Source of the DNA: Pseudobacteriovorax sp.
GTDB taxonomy: Bacteria; Bdellovibrionota_B; Oligoflexia; Oligoflexales; Oligoflexaceae
Length of the DNA stretch: 15,285 bases
NCBI GenBank assembly: GCA_050293845.1
Contig: JBNKNM010000126.1
Span: 1-15,285, forward strand
Reading direction: 5' to 3'
A program made the position numbers and the translations under genes. Below the pieces are notes generated by a model. The model was given only the letters and a program-made list of their open reading frames with translations, had not been told where the DNA came from and made no database searches. Shown here one piece after another: positions 3,864 to 13,260 of this stretch (position 1 is the stretch's first letter; every line of letters begins with the position of its first letter).

Positions 3864-6311
3864 ATGGTACAAAGACTCATTAAAAATTCTACTGTAAAGG
3901 TGACAGAGGCTCTGCAAGCCGCACTCATGGAGTATGCAAATCAGCGAAAGTCCGTGGTTGGCCCCGAAGGCATACTTGTAGCTTTATTGGACCAGAAAGA
4001 TTCCATTGCCATAAAAATTATAAATAATCTGGACTTGGATTCAGGAACCGTGCGCGCAGAAATCGTCGATATGGCCATCGCTGCTATTAATGCTCTACCC
4101 CAATTCCATCCAGGGCAAGTTAGCCAGATACGCATGACCAAGGAAGTAGAGAACTTGTTTGAAGCTGCCGATCGGGAGCGGCGACGCATGGGCGACGCCT
4201 TTATATCAACGGGAGCCCTCTTCTTAGCGTGCTTTGATCATGCGGTACCAGGGAACGAAAAAATTCTAACGAGTGTGGATCTCAACTATAAGGATTGTGT
4301 CAAAGCCCTTGATGATATCAGGGGTAACCAAAAAATTACTGACCGAGAAGAGGAGTCTCGCCGTTCGGTCCTACAGGAATATACTGTTGATCTTACTTAC
4401 CTAGCGAGAAAAGAACAGCTGGACCCTGTTATTGGCCGGGATGCCGAGATCAATCGTGTCATCCAAATATTGTCCCGACGGAAGAAGAATAACCCTCTGT
4501 TATTAGGGGAGCCTGGTGTTGGAAAAACTGTGATTGCTGAGGGACTGGCTAATCGTATCGCTTCAGCTGATGTCCCTGAGTATCTGTCGGATAAACGCAT
4601 CCTTTCCCTTGAAATTGCCAGCTTAATCGCGGGAGCTAAGATGCAAGGCGAGTTTGAAGAGCGATTGAAAACAGTAAAAGATGAAGTGATAGCCTCGGAA
4701 GGGCAAATTATCTTATTTATCGATGAAATTCATACGGTGGTAGGAGCGGGGAGATCTTCCGGGGGGCTGGATGCCTCAAATATGCTTAAACCTGCCCTTG
4801 CGCGGGGACAGCTGCAATGTATCGGAGCCACCACTAATAAGGAGTATAAGCAATATATCGAATCGGATAAAGCTTTAGAGCGTCGCTTTCAACCTGTTCG
4901 CATCGAAGAGCCCAGTGTTGAAGATACTATAGAGATTCTCAAAGGAATACGGGGACGGTATGAGAATCATCATAAAATTCAGTATGCTGATGATGCTTTG
5001 ATAGCTGCCACCGAACTATCCCAGAAGTACATTCTCGATCGCAGTCTCCCGGATAAGGCCATTGACCTCTTGGATGAGGCGGGTGCTGAAAAGCGCCTCA
5101 AGGTAATTTATAGCCCTCCTGAAGTTCGAAAAATTGAAAAGGAGCGTTTAGAACTGTTGGATCAAAAATCAAAAGCTTTCAATGAACAGGATTTTGAGAA
5201 AATGTCTAGCTTTCAAATGCTGCTTGCTCAATTGGATGAGTCCCTAGAGGAGCTAAGACGGCAGCATAAGGAAAGCACCGAGCAGGTAAATAATGTAGTA
5301 GATCGCGAGAATATAGCAGCCTTAGTGAGCCGTCAAACCGGCGTTCCAGTTACAAAAATGATCGCCCAAGAGGCGGAAAAGCTGCTTCACCTAGAGAAAC
5401 ACCTTCAGAGCCGTGTTATAGGGCAAGAACATGCTGTTAAATCGGTTGCTAACGCCATTCGTCGCAATCGTTCTGGAATCAAAAATACCGATACTCCCAT
5501 TGCTTCCTTTTTGTTTTTGGGCCCCACGGGGGTGGGAAAAACAGAGCTTGCCAAAGCTATCGCATCAGAGGTGCTGGACTCTGATCATAGGATCATTCGT
5601 ATTGATATGTCCGAATATATGGAACGTCATGATGTAAGCAAATTGATTGGATCACCCCCCGGATATGTTGGTTACGGCGAGGGGGGACAGCTTACAGAAA
5701 AAGTGCGAAGGCAGCCTTATTCTGTGGTGCTGTTTGACGAGTTTGAAAAAGCCCATCCCGACGTATTTAATCTTCTTTTACAAATCCTCGATGAAGGTTG
5801 GTTGACAGATGCAGAAGGTCAACGGATTAGCTTTACCAATACTGTAATTATTGGTACCTCAAACTTAGGTTCCGAAGTCTTAGGAGAGAAAAAAGCTCCC
5901 ATCGGTATCGGTTCCCACGTAACTCCATGGTCGAAGGATGATGAATCAAAGGAAATATTTAAGGTTGTCAAAAATTTTCTTAGACCAGAATTTATCAATC
6001 GCCTCGATGAGATCATTATTTTCAATAAACTTGGTGAGCATGAATTTGAAAAAATCCTTGATCTTATCTTGAAAGATTTGAAATCCCGTATGTCCCATAT
6101 GGGAATAGAATTGATCATTGATGAAGAATCAAAGAAATATATTATCGACTCCATTGATACCAATCAATATGGGGCAAGGCCATTAAAAAGGAAAGTTCAG
6201 GATCTTGTTGAAAATGAAATTGCCAATATCCTGATCGGAGCTGATCCTAAGGAAATCAAGAGTATTAAAGTTGGTGTTGACAATGGTGATTTGTCTCTGA
6301 AACCTCAATAA
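3864..6311 (+). CDS. clpC: ATP-dependent Clp protease ATP-binding subunit, ClpC-type Hsp100
   Basis: 815 aa. Clp-N repeats; AAA1 'LDPVIGRD..I', Walker A GEPGVGKT, Walker B ILFIDEIH, 'ALERRFQ'; short UVR-type middle domain ('[12 protein letters not shown]'); AAA2 GPTGVGKT, 'RIDMSEY', pore loop GYVG, '[11 protein letters not shown]'; ClpP-loop-like 'PIGIG'; 'RPEFINR', 'GARPLKR'. Confidence 0.88.
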
Positions 6312-6380: not shown

Positions 6381-6621
6381 GATGGCTAAGTAAGATAAAC
6401 ATTGATACCATTAATCCGGGATCTGAAAAAATGGCGAGATGACACCTTTGCCCCTCTTGGTAGTTTTGGTGCGGTATGGCCATCTATCAGGACGCAAGGC
6501 TCGATAGTACATCACCGCAATGAACTCCCGTAAAATGATAAAGTTGTATTTTGCAGCAATGTCTGAGTCGGGGTTAATTTTTCGCATTCAGGTTGATAGG
6601 GTTTACTTCAGCGGAGGGTCT

Positions 6622-7170
6622 ATGGCTGAGCAATGGATGTCCATTGTCGAATACGCTCGTACTTTTGCGATATCGGATATGACTGTCCGACGTAGAATTA
6701 AAAATGGCAAGCTCAACGCTGTACTTCGTGATGGAAAATATTACATTCAGATCAATCCCGATCATGTGTCTCATGAAAGTCCTGATACCGAGATCAGGCC
6801 CCTTAGTCCTTCCCCAGTATCAGCTCCTGTTATGGATATGAAAGCTCCTTCTCCCTATGGGGTCAATAAGGGTGGCGCTGTCTTATCCCCGCGCGGCTGG
6901 CATCAAAATCAGCAAGAATCAACCTCAGGAATCATAGCAAATCCAGTGCACCAAGGGGATGGAGTAGATATTAAAGGCCTCGTAGATTATTGTAATCGGT
7001 CTTTGAGTAGGATTGCATCCATCGAAAGGCACCTAAACGATACATACCAGAGTAAATTAGCCCGCATGGAGGCTGAACTACGTAGTAAGGATATGGAGAT
7101 CGCTCAACTGAAACAGAGGGTTGAAGATCTGCAAATTCTAATCAAAATGTATGATGGCAGTCGCACCTAA
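6622..7170 (+). CDS. Hypothetical DNA-binding protein: N-terminal MerR/excisionase-like HTH, low-complexity linker, C-terminal coiled coil
   Basis: Preferred start is ATG 6622 with GGAGG at 6613-6617; the ORF track extends to 6520. 'WMSIVEYARTFAISDMTVRRRIKNGKLNAVLRDGKYYI' is a typical HTH_17/MerR-type wHTH. Pro/Ser-rich middle; heptad-rich 'LARMEAELRSKDMEIAQLKQRVEDLQILI'. Confidence 0.75.
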   Translation: MAEQWMSIVEYARTFAISDMTVRRRIKNGKLNAVLRDGKYYIQINPDHVSHESPDTEIRPLSPSPVSAPVMDMKAPSPYGVNKGGAVLSPRGWHQNQQESTSGIIANPVHQGDGVDIKGLVDYCNRSLSRIASIERHLNDTYQSKLARMEAELRSKDMEIAQLKQRVEDLQILIKMYDGSRT

Positions 7171-8264
7171 TCCTCGAAAAAAATAAGACTAGAATCTCCA
7201 TAGGAATAAAATCGATAGCTGTTTTCAATAGCGAATTGATACAGTGCCTTTGTTTTATCATATCCCACGAGGGCTGAAATTAGCATGAGCAAAGTACTTT
7301 CAGGCTGATGGAAGTTCGTCATGATCCCGGCCAATATTTTTGAGCGATAGCGTTCTGCGCGTGTCTTGGGATATATGAATAGGTCTGTAGACCACCATTG
7401 CTCTGCTTTATCAGCAAGTTGATCCATGGTGGTTAAAGAGAGGAATGATTCCATAGATCGGAAACTAGTGGTCCCTACAGTAAAGATGGGGATTTTTTGC
7501 TGGTAGGCCGTGTAGATGGCTTGCCAGCTGTCCTGGGGAATGAAATATTTTTCAGCGTGCATCTCATGTTGATCAAGCTGTTCTGTTTTGACTGGTAGAA
7601 ATGTCCCGGCACCCACATGCAATGTGATGTCGACAATTTTGATTTTGCTTTGTTGAGAAAGCTTTTCGCAGAGCTCTGTAGTGAAATGCAGCCCTGCCGT
7701 TGGTGCCGCCACACTTCCACGGGGACCAGCATATACCGTTTGATAGGACTTTGTGTCTGCGCTTTGCGATGCCGGTAACGGATGCTCTCGCTTGATGTAA
7801 GGGGGAAGCGGGATAAAACCCTCGTCTTCAACAAAACCATAAAAGTCCTCCCAAGTCAGGGGGAAGCTGATAGTGAAATATGGCGTTGTTGCTGAATGCA
7901 CCTCCTCCACGGTACCCACTGTGGTACCGAAGTAAATGTCCACCGAAGGCTTAAGCTTTTTCATGGGTTTGCCGATGGCTTTCCATTTACAAGTTTTGGA
8001 ATGACTGAGGGGCTCAATCAGCATAATCTCCACCCTTCCCCCATGCTTTGTTTTGCCAATGATCCGGCTGGGAATGACGCGACTATTATTGCGTATGATG
8101 ACGGCTTCTTGGGGTAAATAATCAAGCAAACGATGCACTTTGGTATTGATAAACTGCCCCCCTCTAGCAACAAGAAGCTTGGCTTCCGCTCTATTTTCAA
8201 GGGGCTGATGAGCGACCAGCTCGGGGGGGAGATCATAGTGAAAGTCTTTTTTACTGAGGCTCAT
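7167..8264 (-). CDS. queA: S-adenosylmethionine:tRNA ribosyltransferase-isomerase (queuosine biosynthesis)
   Basis: 'DFHYDLPPELVAHQP', 'NNSRVIPSR', 'G.IPLPPYIKR', 'YQTVYA..GSVAAPTAGLHFT', 'TLHVGAGTFLPV', 'VGTTS.R..ES', 'TNFHQPESTLLML', 'YRFYSYGD'. Start moved to ATG 8264 (MSLSKKDF, AGGA upstream) from 8297, which would overlap the upstream gene. Confidence 0.97.
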   Translation of the reverse strand: MSLSKKDFHYDLPPELVAHQPLENRAEAKLLVARGGQFINTKVHRLLDYLPQEAVIIRNNSRVIPSRIIGKTKHGGRVEIMLIEPLSHSKTCKWKAIGKPMKKLKPSVDIYFGTTVGTVEEVHSATTPYFTISFPLTWEDFYGFVEDEGFIPLPPYIKREHPLPASQSADTKSYQTVYAGPRGSVAAPTAGLHFTTELCEKLSQQSKIKIVDITLHVGAGTFLPVKTEQLDQHEMHAEKYFIPQDSWQAIYTAYQQKIPIFTVGTTSFRSMESFLSLTTMDQLADKAEQWWSTDLFIYPKTRAERYRSKILAGIMTNFHQPESTLLMLISALVGYDKTKALYQFAIENSYRFYSYGDSSLIFFED

Positions 8265-8271
8265 AAGTTTC

Positions 8272-10428
8272 CTATACAATAAAAAGTGGTTTGCCATCTA
8301 GGGTACCTGTCCAGGGTAATCGATTTAGTTCCCCCACCCGTCGCGCCTCGCTAAAGTAGCCGGTTGCATCCCCATAGGCATAAAGTAAGGGGTCATTCTG
8401 TAATTGCTTGGTGAGCTGCTTAAGGGACTCCTCTCTGCCTGACATGACACTAATACACCAAGGGTGGGGTGCGAAGCAGGAGTGGAGGGGGAGGAGAGGA
8501 TCTCCGCTCTTATCCAACCATAAAACGCCGCTGTGATCGCGGTAGATGGGAACGTCTCCTTGCTTCTGATACTCCTCAAAGAGTTGAAAAGTGCGAATCT
8601 TGTGGGGCAGAGGTAAGGCCATGGGCTTTAAATCTGCTACTTGTTGGCAGGCTTCTGCAAAACTATGCTGGGAATCCGGACTGAATATGAAGATGCCTCG
8701 GGAAGACAAGCAGCCCAATCCAGATAAGCTATAGATGTCTTTTTGGATTTTTTCTAAATCCGTTGCCAAAGAACGGCTGTCGATAATATCAAACGCAAAT
8801 TTACTACCAAACCCCTGTACCTTTAAGGCCGTTTCCTTTCTTACACATTCTATGGTTTGGTCGGAGCCAAAAAGAAAGCAGGCATCAAATTGCTGATGAC
8901 TACTCGCATCTAAGCGTTCGTGTGAAGGCATGAAATTCAGCTTGGCTCCGCTGGCTTCAATAAAGGCTTTAAAAGCATTAAAAAATTTCTGGTGGGTGCG
9001 CGTGGCCCGTAATGTCACCTTTAGATTCAGACAGATCGCTAATACCACAGGATAAATGACCGCCAGGGGATGAGTCTGCGGGGATACTATCAGCCAACGC
9101 TCGGGGGTTTCCCTATTAAAGGTCTTTTCTACAGCCCGATACCACTGAGAGAGGCCTTGTGGAATATCTGCTAACAGATCTTCAATAGCCCATTGCACCA
9201 CCTGGTCCATTTCAAAACTGGTTTTAAGTATCTTTTTAATATGATCTGAAGATAACCATAGTGCTAGGTTTTTATAAAAAAAATGAATCCTTTTAGGGAT
9301 TATGGTCGCTTGCCAGTGAGTACTTTTAGAGCCCGCAGCTACCTCCTGGATGTGTTGTGATAACAGGCTTTCAGCGTTAAGAGAGCAGCCTTTTAAAACT
9401 GTATTTGGCAAGCGCCCGCAGAGCGTGAAGCTGCCATCGGCCTTTAAGTCGACTAGGTCCTGGGTGCGTATGCTCCCAGAGCAGTCAATGCGCAGTGGAT
9501 CATGGATCACAAGAGCTCCTCTGCCTTCCTTTAGAACCTTTGCAGAATCTTGCTGGACTCCTATAGCTACCCAGCTGGGGAATCGAAACCGCCGTCCTTC
9601 CTGACTTGGAATTTCATATGCCTGGCAAGCCAGTTCACACATACCATACTCACTAATAATGGGGATACTTTGATGGCGGCTTGCAAAGATTTTTTGTATG
9701 GCATCATGCAGCTCTGATCGCGATACTTCGCGGGTGCGGCCTTTGGTTCCTCCCGTTTCGATGACAATACTTCCGGGAGGAAGGGGGCAGTGGTAACCTG
9801 AGTCGTACAACTCAATAAAGTGAAATCCGGTCCCAAAGACCCATACCGGAGATTGCAGGCCCGGTTGCGGTCTAGAAAAGCTGACCGGTGAAGAAGCGGC
9901 AATCCACGTGATCATTTGAGCTAGGCTAGAATTGCGCCACTCTGTTGCAGGGGGAACAAGACTATAGCCTTGTCTTGTCCTGGGGTCAGAAAAATAGTGT
10001 TTTAGTACCTCGTGGAATATAGTAACTGAGCTAATTTGGTATAATTTTAATCCCGCGCTTGAAAATTGTGACTGGGATCTCAAGGATTCCGTTGTACCGC
10101 TGGATAAGAATTTGTGGGGCAACTGGTCGGGAAATAATGTTGCTGGTTGGGACTTAAACCATTCGATAGGATAAATGGGTCTTTGGGCCGGCAAAGCGGG
10201 GTTTTGATCCCATAGGGGACGAGCTATGACCTGTTGCCATAGTTGCTGATTGCTTGCATTCAGGCTGTTTTGTTCTGCATCCACCACAGTTTTGACTCCA
10301 TCGTAAAACCCCTTCCTCAGAAGCTCCTGCAGAGAGAACAGGGAGGGGGATACAAGATGACAAAGTGAGTTGTTAAACGAACTTCCATTTACTATATTCT
10401 TTAGTGCTGGCCAATAACGATCATGCAT
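8272..10428 (-). CDS. Fused LuxE-like acyl-protein synthetase (aa ~1-350) and LuxC-like acyl-CoA reductase (aa ~375-718)
   Basis: N half: 'PIEWFK', 'FLSSGTT', 'SSLAQM', 'VFGT', 'IETGGTKGR.RE..R.ELH', 'SEYGMCEL..QAY', 'F.FPSWV', 'I.TQDL', 'GR....LKGCS'. C half: ALDH-like 'FDACFLFGSDQTI..VR', 'GFGSKFAF.II', 'DIYSLSGLGCLSSR.IF'. One uninterrupted 718-codon frame. Confidence 0.8.
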   Translation of the reverse strand: MHDRYWPALKNIVNGSSFNNSLCHLVSPSLFSLQELLRKGFYDGVKTVVDAEQNSLNASNQQLWQQVIARPLWDQNPALPAQRPIYPIEWFKSQPATLFPDQLPHKFLSSGTTESLRSQSQFSSAGLKLYQISSVTIFHEVLKHYFSDPRTRQGYSLVPPATEWRNSSLAQMITWIAASSPVSFSRPQPGLQSPVWVFGTGFHFIELYDSGYHCPLPPGSIVIETGGTKGRTREVSRSELHDAIQKIFASRHQSIPIISEYGMCELACQAYEIPSQEGRRFRFPSWVAIGVQQDSAKVLKEGRGALVIHDPLRIDCSGSIRTQDLVDLKADGSFTLCGRLPNTVLKGCSLNAESLLSQHIQEVAAGSKSTHWQATIIPKRIHFFYKNLALWLSSDHIKKILKTSFEMDQVVQWAIEDLLADIPQGLSQWYRAVEKTFNRETPERWLIVSPQTHPLAVIYPVVLAICLNLKVTLRATRTHQKFFNAFKAFIEASGAKLNFMPSHERLDASSHQQFDACFLFGSDQTIECVRKETALKVQGFGSKFAFDIIDSRSLATDLEKIQKDIYSLSGLGCLSSRGIFIFSPDSQHSFAEACQQVADLKPMALPLPHKIRTFQLFEEYQKQGDVPIYRDHSGVLWLDKSGDPLLPLHSCFAPHPWCISVMSGREESLKQLTKQLQNDPLLYAYGDATGYFSEARRVGELNRLPWTGTLDGKPLFIV

Positions 10429-10545
10429 CGGATATCAATAGCTTTCAAACCATTCATAATAGAGTAAGCTTAAATATCTATGCATCCCTTTGTGATGCCA
10501 AATCAACGGTGTATATAACGATTTACCACCAAAGGCAAGTGAGTA

Positions 10546-11355
10546 ATGTCTGCAAATTATCAACTTAAACTAGATCGCTTTGAAGGGCCTTTGGATCTGC
10601 TCCTGCATCTGATCAAGGTTAATGAGATTGACATCTTTAACATCGATATTTTCCTGTTAGCAACCCAGTATATTCAGTACCTTAGAACAGTGCGCTATGA
10701 CGATCTCTCTGTAGCAGGTGAGTTTCTTGAAATGGCCGCCACCCTTGTGGAAATAAAAACCCGGATGTTGCTACCTCGTAATGACATTGGCAGCGCTGGA
10801 GATGAGAGTGAGGATGAGGACCCGACCAAGACTCTGCATGAAAGGCTGCTTACTTATGAAAGTTTCAAGGGGGTGGCAGAGTTTTTAGGACACCGTCCTC
10901 GCTATGATATTATTATTTGTCAGTCCCCTGAACCTAAAAGGCTAGCTCCGCTGTATGAACATATCGAGGCTCCTCTGGAAGGTGATACCACCTCTTTAGT
11001 CATTCTCTATGAACAGATGCTGAAGGGGCTGGCAGAGCGCAAACCTCCAGCCAAGGTTGAAGCAAAGATGCATATGGTGACGGTCGATCAAAAGATCCAG
11101 GAGCTGGAAAAACTGATCGAAACAGTTAAGTTTGCTCTATTTCAAGGTTTTTATAAAAAATTTCGCTCCCGCTATGAGCTTGTAGTCTATATTTTGGCTG
11201 CCCTGGAACTTTCTAAGGGCGGAAAAATAAGGCTCCTTCAGCAGGAAATTAATGGGCCTATATGGCTTTATCGCAGCGATTTCGACCGCAAAAACCTCCC
11301 TATTGGCGCAGCTAGGTTAGCAGAAGATCAAACAATTAGGAGTCCAGAGAGTTGA
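10546..11355 (+). CDS. scpA: Segregation and condensation protein A (SMC kleisin)
   Basis: 'FEGPLDLLLHLI...EIDIFNI', 'GEFLEMAATLVEIKTRMLLP', 'EDP...L..RL..Y', C-terminal winged helix 'LVVYILAALEL.K.G.I.L.Q'. Confidence 0.95.
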   Translation: MSANYQLKLDRFEGPLDLLLHLIKVNEIDIFNIDIFLLATQYIQYLRTVRYDDLSVAGEFLEMAATLVEIKTRMLLPRNDIGSAGDESEDEDPTKTLHERLLTYESFKGVAEFLGHRPRYDIIICQSPEPKRLAPLYEHIEAPLEGDTTSLVILYEQMLKGLAERKPPAKVEAKMHMVTVDQKIQELEKLIETVKFALFQGFYKKFRSRYELVVYILAALELSKGGKIRLLQQEINGPIWLYRSDFDRKNLPIGAARLAEDQTIRSPES

Positions 11356-12572
11356 CCGATAAGAAAAGACCCGACCAGGACCAAGAAACTTCCTTTGCGG
11401 ACTTTGAGTTCGAGGCTGAGTTAGAAAGCTTGGCTGCGGAGGTTACAGGCACAGACCTTGGTGACAAGGGAGGTGATCCCCCGCAGGCCGCCGCAATTGC
11501 AGCACAGGAAGATGGTGTAGATGATAGTCTTGAGCATACCATTATGGTGAAGGAGTCTTCCCCCGTTGATATTTTTATAGATGCGACGGGGAAGGCCGAT
11601 CAGGAGCAGGCGGATCACAGCTTGACATTTGCAGAACAGGAAAGTGATGGGCTTTGCTTTACCGAGCAGTTAAGCCTACAGGGGCAAGTGGAGGCGATAC
11701 TTTTTGCTAGCCCAAAACCTATGAAACCTTCTGAAATAGCGGACATTATTCAAGATGAAGATCATGACATTGCGGTGGCCGATGTCGAGGCTGTTATCAC
11801 CCACCTAATGCGCCAATATGAGGAGTCCGGAGGAGGCTTCACCCTTATTCACGAGAAAGGAGTGGGATATCAGTTTCAAACGGTACCAGCAGCAAGTCGT
11901 CTCATGGAAAAAATGTTTTCTAGCAGACCGCGGCCCTTATCCCGTGCGGCTCTTGAAACCCTCTCCATCATTGCCTATCGGCAACCAACCACGCGTGCGG
12001 AAATAGAATATGTTAGGGGTGTCGACGCAGGGTCCATCATCAAGAATCTTTTGGATAGAGAGCTCATCAGGTGTGTGGGGCGCAAAGAGGATGCCGGTAG
12101 GCCCATGGTATTTGGTACAACAGCTGAATTTTTAAAGGTTTTTAACTTAAAAACCCTAGGAGACTTACCACCGTTAGCTTCTTTCCAGCCACCCTCAGAT
12201 ATACTCAAAAATAGTCAAATTGACATTAAAGGCCCTGTTGATGTAGAAGAGTTCGTCGGAGACCAAGATCAGGAACAGCCGGAAGTTTCCGTAGGCCTTG
12301 AACAGGAGCTTCCAAGGGCTGCAATTAGCGATGAACAGGATGATGACGAAACGCCACTGCAATCTGAAGCAGATAGTCCCTCGTTTGTTGATAACGCATC
12401 AGCTAGGGAACTGGTCGATGGTTCAGAAAGGGATGAAGATCCACCAGTTCCAGGGACATCTGTAACGGGTGCGACTCAATTTGACTTTAATGAAACGGAA
12501 CAAAACAATGACAGCAATAAGAATTCAAAAATTTCTCTCCCAACAAGGGATAGCCTCAAGGAGGGAAGCTGA
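11352..12572 (+). CDS. scpB: SMC-Scp complex subunit ScpB with long acidic N- and C-terminal extensions
   Basis: Core aa ~109-277: 'VEAILFAS.KP', 'GYQFQT', 'LSRAALETLSIIAYRQPTTRAEIEYVRGVD', 'GRKE.AGRP..FGTT.EFL..F.L..L.DLPPL'. The TTG start overlaps the scpA TGA (TTGA); the exact start is uncertain. Confidence 0.93.
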   Translation: MTDKKRPDQDQETSFADFEFEAELESLAAEVTGTDLGDKGGDPPQAAAIAAQEDGVDDSLEHTIMVKESSPVDIFIDATGKADQEQADHSLTFAEQESDGLCFTEQLSLQGQVEAILFASPKPMKPSEIADIIQDEDHDIAVADVEAVITHLMRQYEESGGGFTLIHEKGVGYQFQTVPAASRLMEKMFSSRPRPLSRAALETLSIIAYRQPTTRAEIEYVRGVDAGSIIKNLLDRELIRCVGRKEDAGRPMVFGTTAEFLKVFNLKTLGDLPPLASFQPPSDILKNSQIDIKGPVDVEEFVGDQDQEQPEVSVGLEQELPRAAISDEQDDDETPLQSEADSPSFVDNASARELVDGSERDEDPPVPGTSVTGATQFDFNETEQNNDSNKNSKISLPTRDSLKEGS

Positions 12573-13260
12573 AGGATGGATCCAAGATGGTCGGGTTAGC
12601 GTCAATGGAAAGCTAGTACTTACTTTAGGAGCTAAAGTTGATCCTGAGCACGATGAGGTCGCTATCGATGGCAAACTCGTTAGTAAAAGCCCTCTTCCAA
12701 AAGTGTATTGGATGCTGAATAAGCCAGATTTGTATTTAACAAGTCATAAGGGTGATGAGAACAAGCAAACCATATTTGATCTTCCTGCTTTGAAGTATGT
12801 TCCCTTTAAAGTCAATGCGGTAGGTCGTCTTGATTACAGGACTGAAGGCTTACTGCTTCTATCAAACGATGGCGATTTTATTCATCGTCTCACGCACCCT
12901 AAGTTCAAGGTGCCACGTTACTACTACGCACTAGTAAGTCATAAACTCAGTGCTGAGCAGCTTAAAAATGTAAGATCAGGGGTTGCGCTGAGTGATGGTA
13001 AAACCGGACCCATTGAAATACAATTTGCCCAGGGCATGAACCTAGGCAAAAGCACGGGAAGCTGGTATTACCTAAAAGTTCATGAAGGAAGAAATCGGTT
13101 GGTGCGCCGGATTTTTGAGCACTTCGATTTCAAAGTCATTCGTTTGGTACGAGCAGGGTTTGGTGACTTGAGACTACCAGATAGTTTGGCGTCTGGAGAG
13201 TATAGGCAATTAAATTCTGCACAGATAAAGCAACTAAAAAAAGCTGTGGGATTAAAATAG
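12508..13260 (+). CDS. rluB: rRNA pseudouridine synthase, RsuA/RluB family
   Basis: S4 domain 'IRIQKFLS..GIASRREAE..I..GRVSVNG', 'LNKP', catalytic 'VGRLD..TEGLLLLSNDG', 'HP', 'EGRNR.VRRIF'. The position after scpB matches the common scpA-scpB-rluB order. Start placed at ATG 12508 (MTAIRIQK). Confidence 0.9.
   Translation: MTAIRIQKFLSQQGIASRREAEGWIQDGRVSVNGKLVLTLGAKVDPEHDEVAIDGKLVSKSPLPKVYWMLNKPDLYLTSHKGDENKQTIFDLPALKYVPFKVNAVGRLDYRTEGLLLLSNDGDFIHRLTHPKFKVPRYYYALVSHKLSAEQLKNVRSGVALSDGKTGPIEIQFAQGMNLGKSTGSWYYLKVHEGRNRLVRRIFEHFDFKVIRLVRAGFGDLRLPDSLASGEYRQLNSAQIKQLKKAVGLK

Follow-up and report, generated by a model that had tools for sequence, protein, structure and literature searches.

The gene at positions 8272-10428 (minus strand) of the 15,285-nt stretch of Pseudobacteriovorax sp. 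DNA analysed here (the window; contig JBNKNM010000126.1, assembly GCA_050293845.1) probably encodes a soluble single-chain reductase of the LuxE/LuxC type, which would reduce free carboxylic acids to aldehydes at the expense of ATP and NAD(P)H, with neither a carrier protein nor coenzyme A (CoA). An earlier reading made from the letters alone (the sequence-only reading) had proposed such a fusion of a LuxE-like activating domain with a LuxC-like reductase domain. Domain matches, folds and catalytic residues all support this interpretation, and the mechanism is proposed by homology.

The region 8272-10428 is one unbroken frame of 718 codons followed by TAG (P0001), exactly as had been claimed, and nothing interrupts it across the domain junction in the window. 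The extent of the frame stands, but the protein length of 718 aa probably does not: the real protein is more likely the 671-aa product initiated at the GTG at 10287, because residues 1-44 of the 718-aa frame have a predicted local distance difference test (pLDDT) score below 50 in the AlphaFold2 (AF2) model, the database gene call on the same contig (P0002, 671 aa) begins at codon 48, and a GGAG is found 8 nt 5' of this GTG, no comparable site being present before the ATG at 10428. Residue numbers throughout are those of the 718-codon frame; the two cysteines central to what follows, Cys348 and Cys573, become Cys301 and Cys526 in 671-aa numbering. All motifs named in the sequence-only reading were located in the translation, namely SSGTT (109-113), IETGGTKG (223-230), SEYGMCEL (259-266), GR (338-339) and KGCS (346-349) in the N half, and FGS (520-522), GFGSK (539-543) and GLGCLS (570-575) in the C half; arithmetic from the start of the open reading frame (ORF) likewise returns the codon coordinates that it gave for Cys348 (9387-9385) and Cys573 (8712-8710). 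A word-indexed protein search yielded 325 relatives at E<=0.001 among 7664 candidates, and 53 of them, taken from the 120 listed, were aligned with P0001 (alignment A1, 54 rows). Residues S109, S110, G111, T112, E224-G227, K229, E260, Y261, R339, G347, C348 and S349 are invariant in all 54 rows, as are H453, R474, G572 and C573 in the C half, and the motifs are therefore not due to chance. The features of the gene are as follows:

8272..10428, minus strand: whole open frame P0001, 718 codons plus TAG; the coding sequence in use is probably 8272-10287 (671 aa)
10285..10299, minus strand: probable true start, with GGAG at 10299-10296, an 8-nt spacer and GTG at 10287-10285 (codon 48), the same start as in P0002
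9361..10287, minus strand: LuxE-like adenylating (acyl-protein synthetase) domain with a PaaK-family fold, residues 48-356
9385..9387, minus strand: Cys348, in the KGCSL motif
9298..9360, minus strand: inter-domain linker, residues 357-377, poorly conserved and of low model confidence
8275..9297, minus strand: LuxC-like reductase domain with an aldehyde dehydrogenase (ALDH) fold, residues 378-718, including H453, R474, FGSDQT (520-525) and GFGSK (539-543)
8710..8712, minus strand: Cys573, in the GLGCLS motif
8299..8301, minus strand: Leu710, which aligns with LuxC His442 (alignment to LuxC and A1)

The assignment of the N half to LuxE is borne out at both the profile and the fold level. Profile A3 spans residues 48-356 and combines the N domains of the window protein, of 24 fused loci and of every one of the 24 stand-alone LuxE-like loci (see below). 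It matches LuxE of Photobacterium phosphoreum (7xc6_E) with E=1.3e-22 and almost end to end (profile positions 5-292 on LuxE 71-368), while the second-best match has E=0.55. The N-domain model (pLDDT 87.5) retrieves the PaaK-family AMP ligases AjiA1, ClxA, NatL2 and PaaK1/2 in a structure search, and passages of the structural study of LuxE compare that protein with PaaK1 (PMC9157457). As in LuxE, the C-terminal subdomain of adenylate-forming (ANL) enzymes is absent. According to sections of two studies (PMC9157457, PMC12041015), Lys238 and Arg355 of LuxE serve adenylation, and the acyl group is carried by Cys364 within the flexible C-terminal motif TRxxKGCxLS. HMMER alignments place K229 of ETGGTKG (9742-9744), the hinge residue R339 (9412-9414) and C348 against Lys238, Arg355 and Cys364, respectively, and the counterparts of the catalytic pair and of the acylated cysteine are all present in each of the 54 rows; the domain also holds D324 of an IRTQD motif. 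Pfam LuxE is matched at E<=0.01 by 18 rows of A1, and stand-alone relatives reach 58.9 bits on this model (cut-off 24.9).

The C half was likewise assigned to LuxC and the ALDH fold by several approaches. The window protein scores above the cut-off of Pfam LuxC (PF05893; 27.2 versus 21 bits), though the match is partial, covering residues 497-604 and only model positions 153-263 of 401; the same family is matched at E<=0.01 by 22 of the 54 rows. Profile A2 spans residues 376-718 and was made from the C domains of the window protein, of 24 fused loci and of 14 LuxC-like genes that stand alone; it matches LuxC (7xc6_A) over chain positions 142-435 with E=4e-18, the second-best match having E=0.0033. 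In a Foldseek search with the full-length AF2 model (pLDDT 87.1, pTM 0.84) ALDH structures were retrieved, with 7xc6_A at rank 3 (E=3.5e-10). The domain comprises about 340 residues, and its alignment with LuxC runs from approximately LuxC residue 153 to 446. Within it, R474 aligns with the Lys of LuxC IKTSSA and FGSDxT with the nucleotide-binding turn of LuxC; conservation in A1 is high at R474 (54/54), G521 (52/54) and T525 (53/54). By analogy with ALDH enzymes in general, R474 and FGSDxT are likely to mark the NAD(P)H site.

Both acyl-carrying cysteines are thus kept in one chain, as the sequence-only reading had maintained, and neither varies among the 54 rows: the KGCSL motif of Cys348 aligns with the KGCSL of LuxE that holds Cys364, and Cys573 aligns with the cysteine of LuxC DQQACFS (chain index 285 of 7xc6_A), which would be Cys296 on the assumption that the 477-residue chain is without the first 11 residues of a 488-residue LuxC. 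Cys296 is described, in excerpts of the two studies cited above, as taking the acyl group from more than 30 Å away before reduction with NADPH (PMC9157457, PMC12041015). The stretch between the two domains has the appearance of a flexible connection. After the Cys348 loop come a short helix and then the low-confidence linker (residues ~357-377); successive pLDDT blocks across residues 341-370 stand at 67, 55 and 52, and the segment 360-364 falls below 50. The distance from L350 to D417 amounts to 51-87 residues in all 54 rows.

By analogy with LuxC and LuxE, catalysis might proceed in four steps. The LuxE-like domain would adenylate the acid with the help of the SSGTT loop, K229, D324 and R339, and Cys348, in the KGCSL loop behind the hinge arginine, would then receive the acyl group. 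Carried on a flexible linker of some 20-30 residues, this loop would reach the LuxC-like active site and hand the acyl group to Cys573, either of the same chain or of a partner chain. Finally, NAD(P)H bound at the Rossmann part (R474, FGSDxT) would reduce the thioester, and the aldehyde would be released. As substrate, a fatty acid or another hydrophobic acid would be the first guess.

Several observations weigh against this picture. At the level of individual sequences the protein is poorly recognizable: the sequence-only reading had looked to Pfam LuxE (PF04443) for a check, and the window protein itself fails it, a scan of residues 1-375 giving no LuxE match even at E<=10, nor did the NCBIfam scan of the window protein or a phmmer search of P0001 alone against PDB sequences return any match. 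The C half shares no more than ~14-15% identity with stand-alone LuxC-like proteins, and a pairwise BLAST comparison with one of these was not significant (E=0.30); the sequence gap between the two is bridged by profiles only. Furthermore, the C half is shortened at both ends. About 85 N-terminal LuxC residues are without a counterpart, and P0001 ends 6 residues beyond the last LuxC-aligned position, leaving no equivalent of LuxC P460-P488; passages of the LuxC-LuxE study describe this segment as an oligomerisation element, contributed by a neighbouring subunit of the tetramer, that closes the long L-shaped hydrophobic acyl cleft (PMC9157457). Because these parts are missing, the acyl pocket may differ from that of LuxC. 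The position of LuxC His442 is occupied by His in 47 of the 54 rows and by Leu or Ile in the other seven, which include the window protein (Leu710) and, among the matches listed, four of its closest relatives (P0003, P0004, P0005 and P0007). The H442R substitution is reported, in part of the same study, to inactivate two LuxC enzymes; since the polar residues surrounding LuxC Cys296 are there said not to be directly catalytic (PMC9157457), Leu710 need not disable the enzyme. Cys348 is internal, being followed by the linker and a further domain of 340 residues, whereas the corresponding cysteine of LuxE sits on a free C-terminal tail. Lastly, the gene neighbours in the window and in related loci give no hint of lipid metabolism.

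The fusion is widespread. A scan of species-representative genomes recovered 79 loci, 55 of the fused type and 24 with a stand-alone LuxE-like gene. The fused-type loci belong to Bdellovibrionota/Oligoflexia, with the labels Oligoflexus, Pseudobacteriovorax, Oligoflexales and Pseudobdellovibrionaceae, several carrying only a vague 'Proteobacteria'. Both domains reside in one ORF in 48 of these 55 loci, which come from different assemblies, and this is also the case in L043, where the C-domain match is in two pieces. The remainder consists of four loci cut by contig ends and two irregular ones: in L046 (284-1928) the fusion is present as two overlapping ORFs, as if frameshifted, and L020 (9800-10864) has a 354-aa ORF with the N domain only, 45% identical to the N half of the window protein, and no C domain nearby. 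An exhaustive profile search of 1.84 billion cluster representatives returned 3767 at E<=0.001 and 1027 at E<=1e-30; almost all of the best 150 of the 3767 are full-length two-domain proteins. In the ESM Atlas, the cluster of the window protein has 394 members, is commonest in Bdellovibrionota and bears the name 'hypothetical protein'. Judged by cluster summaries only, this resource also has Bacillota clusters of two-domain LuxE+LuxC proteins (758 and 769 aa), as well as clusters in Pseudomonadota and Actinomycetota that pair an AMP-binding domain with LuxC. The fusion family is common, with hundreds of members, nearly all of them called hypothetical. The sequence-only reading had called for an architecture search for other fusions, allowing that the combination might prove both common and characterised; the former turned out to be the case and the latter not, in that a full-text literature search found no description of a natural LuxE-LuxC fusion.

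These data bear directly on whether two separate genes were joined by an assembly or frameshift artefact, an explanation to which we assign practically no weight. The broken frame of L046 and the N-domain-only L020 are what it has in its favour; against it, the frame is uninterrupted in the window and in 48 of 55 independent loci, four others being merely truncated by contig ends, and the linker is of similar length in all rows of A1. The one-ORF fusions, together with the two-domain cluster representatives, refute it, and the junction is genuine. A different alternative accepts the fusion and questions its reductase activity: the protein could be an acyl-protein synthetase or acyltransferase in which Cys573 serves as acyl acceptor or as a relay to another acceptor, or the window copy could have lost the reductase activity. 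The Leu at the position of the essential LuxC His442, shared in kind (Leu or Ile) with six other rows, Thr452 of the window protein at the position of the Asn in LuxC AGNVP, a position that is Thr, Asn or Ser across the family, and the strong divergence and shortening of the C half would all fit this idea, as would the automatic cluster name 'LuxE/PaaK family acyltransferase' given to related Bacillota two-domain proteins. Nevertheless, the Rossmann-type motif is kept almost throughout the family, the histidine is retained in most rows, and the polar neighbours of LuxC Cys296 are not directly catalytic according to the excerpts available (PMC9157457), so that we consider a protein without reductase function unlikely.

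The third alternative concerns the substrate and starts from gene neighbourhoods. Four fused loci lacking the usual synteny (L007, L013, L014 and L018) carry the fusion directly after a genuine cmoB on the same strand, and in three of them cmoA precedes cmoB; in the window, queA is the adjacent gene. The relevant features are:

L007:2761-6970, L013:8248-11941, L014:7804-11989 and L018:8842-12085, same strand as cmoB: cmoB-fusion loci, identified with NCBIfam (TIGR00740 202-229 bits, cut-off 193; TIGR00452 296-330 bits, cut-off 275)
7167..8264 of the window, minus strand: queA, directly downstream of the fusion, with a probable ATG at 8264, 7 nt past the fusion TAG (QueA equivalog 347 bits, cut-off 324)

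The products of cmoA and cmoB make cmo5U34 in tRNA. The same chemistry might accordingly be applied to a non-lipid substrate, a small or polar carboxylate tied to tRNA wobble-base modification such as carboxy-SAM (SAM, S-adenosylmethionine) or the carboxyl of cmo5U34, which we regard as improbable. Besides the position behind cmoB, the overlap of the cmoB and fusion ORFs in L013 and the surroundings of L018 (miaB upstream, aroK downstream) speak in its favour, as do queA, another wobble-34 enzyme gene that directly follows the fusion in the window and in three other loci, and the loss of the segment that forms the acyl cleft of LuxC. On the other hand, the four loci may represent one lineage and a single evolutionary event, and in two of them cmoB and the fusion are ~170-440 nt apart. 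The queA adjacency looks like residual synteny, since the first ORF downstream of the fusion is SprT-like in 22 and an M14 peptidase in 13 of 51 fused loci, queA, where present, lying beyond. Moreover, unlike many RNA-binding enzymes, the family is not basic (median isoelectric point 6.19, above 8 in only 5 of 54 rows), and the literature search found no paper linking cmoA/cmoB with LuxE/LuxC. In its boldest form the proposal would make the fused enzyme a new tRNA-modification or SAM-derivative enzyme rather than a lipid enzyme, one yielding an aldehyde, or a group derived from it, by reduction of the carboxyl that CmoA/CmoB introduce (in carboxy-SAM or cmo5U34). This would account at once for the third-gene place after cmoA-cmoB in the four loci, for the queA adjacency and for the loss of the long acyl cleft; we rate it as very improbable.

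A LuxE/LuxC-type acid reductase being the reading that we favour, its origin can be sought among the stand-alone relatives. Verrucomicrobiota, Rhodothermota and Bacteroidota are among the phyla that contribute the 24 loci with a stand-alone LuxE-like gene (314-436 aa). A separate gene matching the C-domain profile of the fusion is situated downstream on the same strand in 14 of these loci, immediately so in most, with a major facilitator superfamily (MFS) transporter gene intervening in L055 and L079; no LuxC-like gene is within reach in the other ten. All four downstream partners scanned match Pfam LuxC, with 111-149 bits. A quick maximum-likelihood tree of the N domains, covering the window together with 24 of the 47 fused loci (25 fused rows) and all 24 split rows but no Bacillota forms, parts fused from split rows by one branch with an SH-like approximate likelihood ratio test (SH-aLRT) support of 99. 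The most likely origin of the fusion is a neighbouring pair of luxE and luxC genes, in that order, such as other phyla still possess. As such pairs are adjacent there and one branch separates the two forms on the tree, the data fit a single fusion event in the ancestor of this lineage, with the fused gene passed on since then as a conserved chromosomal gene of Oligoflexia-type Bdellovibrionota.

The surroundings of the stand-alone genes have features of their own. A class-III aminotransferase gene precedes the luxE-like (and luxC-like) genes in L058, L059 and L063 as an upstream ORF, and an MFS transporter gene follows the luxE-like gene in L055 (1276-2505) and L079 (10851-12089); these loci belong to Verrucomicrobiota, Hydrogenedentota and unlabelled metagenome-assembled genomes. 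Such neighbours suggest an acid-to-aldehyde-to-amine route in those lineages. An M14 gene lies upstream of the stand-alone LuxE-like gene in L056 (Rhodothermales) and in the unlabelled L070, which groups with L056 on the N-domain tree.

Judged from its sequence, the fusion would best be filed with the known LuxCE fatty acid reductase, of which it would be a new version made as one chain. It has both catalytic modules of the LuxC-LuxE complex of P. phosphoreum (PDB 7XC6; PMC9157457), together with the key residues of that complex (LuxE Lys238, Arg355 and Cys364 in KGCxLS; LuxC Cys296) and the same expected route from acid through acyl-AMP and two successive cysteines to the aldehyde, free of CoA and carrier protein. 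It differs in being a single polypeptide, in the order LuxE then LuxC, with the acylated cysteine internal, in being devoid of the ~85 N-terminal LuxC residues and of P460-P488, and, in the window copy, in having Leu in place of His442. Unlike a lux operon, the window contains no luxA, luxB or luxD, none of which was matched among its other 12 ORFs of at least 216 aa; the remark in the sequence-only reading that no lux genes are nearby thus holds within the window, and these three genes were also not found among the syntenic neighbours of related loci. No luminescence is known from the host lineage.

The stand-alone pairs (L055-L079; Verrucomicrobiota, Eremiobacterota and other non-luminous phyla) also resemble the fusion. 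Their LuxE-like proteins are 29-37% identical to its N domain and share SSGT, SSLAxM, ETGGxKG, EYGMCEL and KGCSL with it, the gene order luxE-luxC equals the domain order, and several of the luxC-like partners are short (357-392 aa); they differ in that the genes are separate, some standing beside a class-III aminotransferase or MFS transporter gene. The Bacillota LuxE+LuxC proteins and other AMP-binding+LuxC proteins have the same combination in one chain, as far as cluster summaries tell. Carboxylic acid reductases (CARs), which are roughly twice the size of the fusion, consist of adenylation, phosphopantetheinyl carrier and short-chain dehydrogenase (SDR)-type reductase domains. They perform in one chain the overall reaction proposed here for the fusion (acid + ATP + NADPH to aldehyde), but their reductase has the SDR fold, while that of the fusion has an ALDH fold with a catalytic cysteine, and its acyl group would be carried on two protein cysteines. 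No phosphopantetheine carrier domain was matched by Pfam in P0001, the inter-domain stretch being the low-confidence linker. If active, the protein would be a natural one-chain acid-to-aldehyde reductase requiring neither a carrier protein nor a phosphopantetheinyl transferase, simpler than the LuxC4E4 complex and attractive for aldehyde, alcohol and alkane production as well as for self-luminous reporters. It would also provide a tethered model for how the LuxE cysteine loop gets to a LuxC active site placed more than 30 Å off in the described parts of the complex (PMC9157457).

Homologues of LuxC and LuxE outside luminescence are not without precedent. In non-luminous settings, an excerpt from the literature places them in flagellin glycosylation islands (PMC4875605), and a gene of Riemerella and the mel2 locus of Mycobacterium marinum are further cases; one more source, in the portions available, presents TabE as a LuxC-related acyl thioester reductase and also mentions CAR (10.1101/2025.08.11.669332). 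The presence of the fusion as a conserved chromosomal gene raises the question of which aldehyde would be made by a whole class of non-luminous, partly predatory bacteria.

In the window the fusion is surrounded by housekeeping genes: scpA, scpB, rluB, a fumarylacetoacetate hydrolase (FAH) family gene and an SDR gene on one side, and queA, a conserved 216-aa protein, a Clp ATPase, a HAD hydrolase, a DUF3050 gene, a family-9 glycosyltransferase (GT9) and an LD-carboxypeptidase on the other. This whole block is syntenic across Oligoflexales-type loci. Since the ATG of queA at 8264 is only 7 nt past the stop codon of the fusion, the two genes are likely to be co-transcribed in the window. With its ATG at 8297, the longest queA ORF reaches 26 nt into the fusion (window 8262-8297); given that queA homologues align only from residue 14 of this longer ORF and that the ATG at 8264 begins MSLSKKDFHYDLPPELVA, this overlap is probably spurious. 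Most Oligoflexales-type loci have same-strand genes for a SprT-like metalloprotease (~190 aa), a secreted-looking M14 carboxypeptidase (~355 aa) or both in the interval that separates the fusion from queA (for example, L028:12156-13834, L005:12086-13153 and L025:3449-4036); neither gene is present in the window. With such genes intervening in most relatives, the adjacency of queA was down-weighted as a functional clue; it looks like compaction rather than a functional signal. Rfam and tRNA scans of the window found nothing, and a promoter/terminator scan of 7000-10700 gave counts no higher than in shuffles.

Some of the other genes of the window deserve a comment. The Clp ATPase (3864-6311) is an 815-aa double-AAA+ protein that scores 950 bits, in two matching stretches, against the ClpB equivalog (cut-off 1232) and is 60-75% identical across related loci; one possibility is a ClpB/ClpC-like variant in which the middle region is shortened. 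The 216-aa protein (6520-7170), located beside queA in most related loci, has only weak helix-turn-helix and coiled-coil matches. Finally, the scpB ORF, in the region 11352-13260, is long (406 aa, with the ScpB domain at 112-275) and overlaps the rluB ORF by ~100 nt, and for this reason one start or end of scpB or rluB was probably mis-set by the mechanical ORF call.

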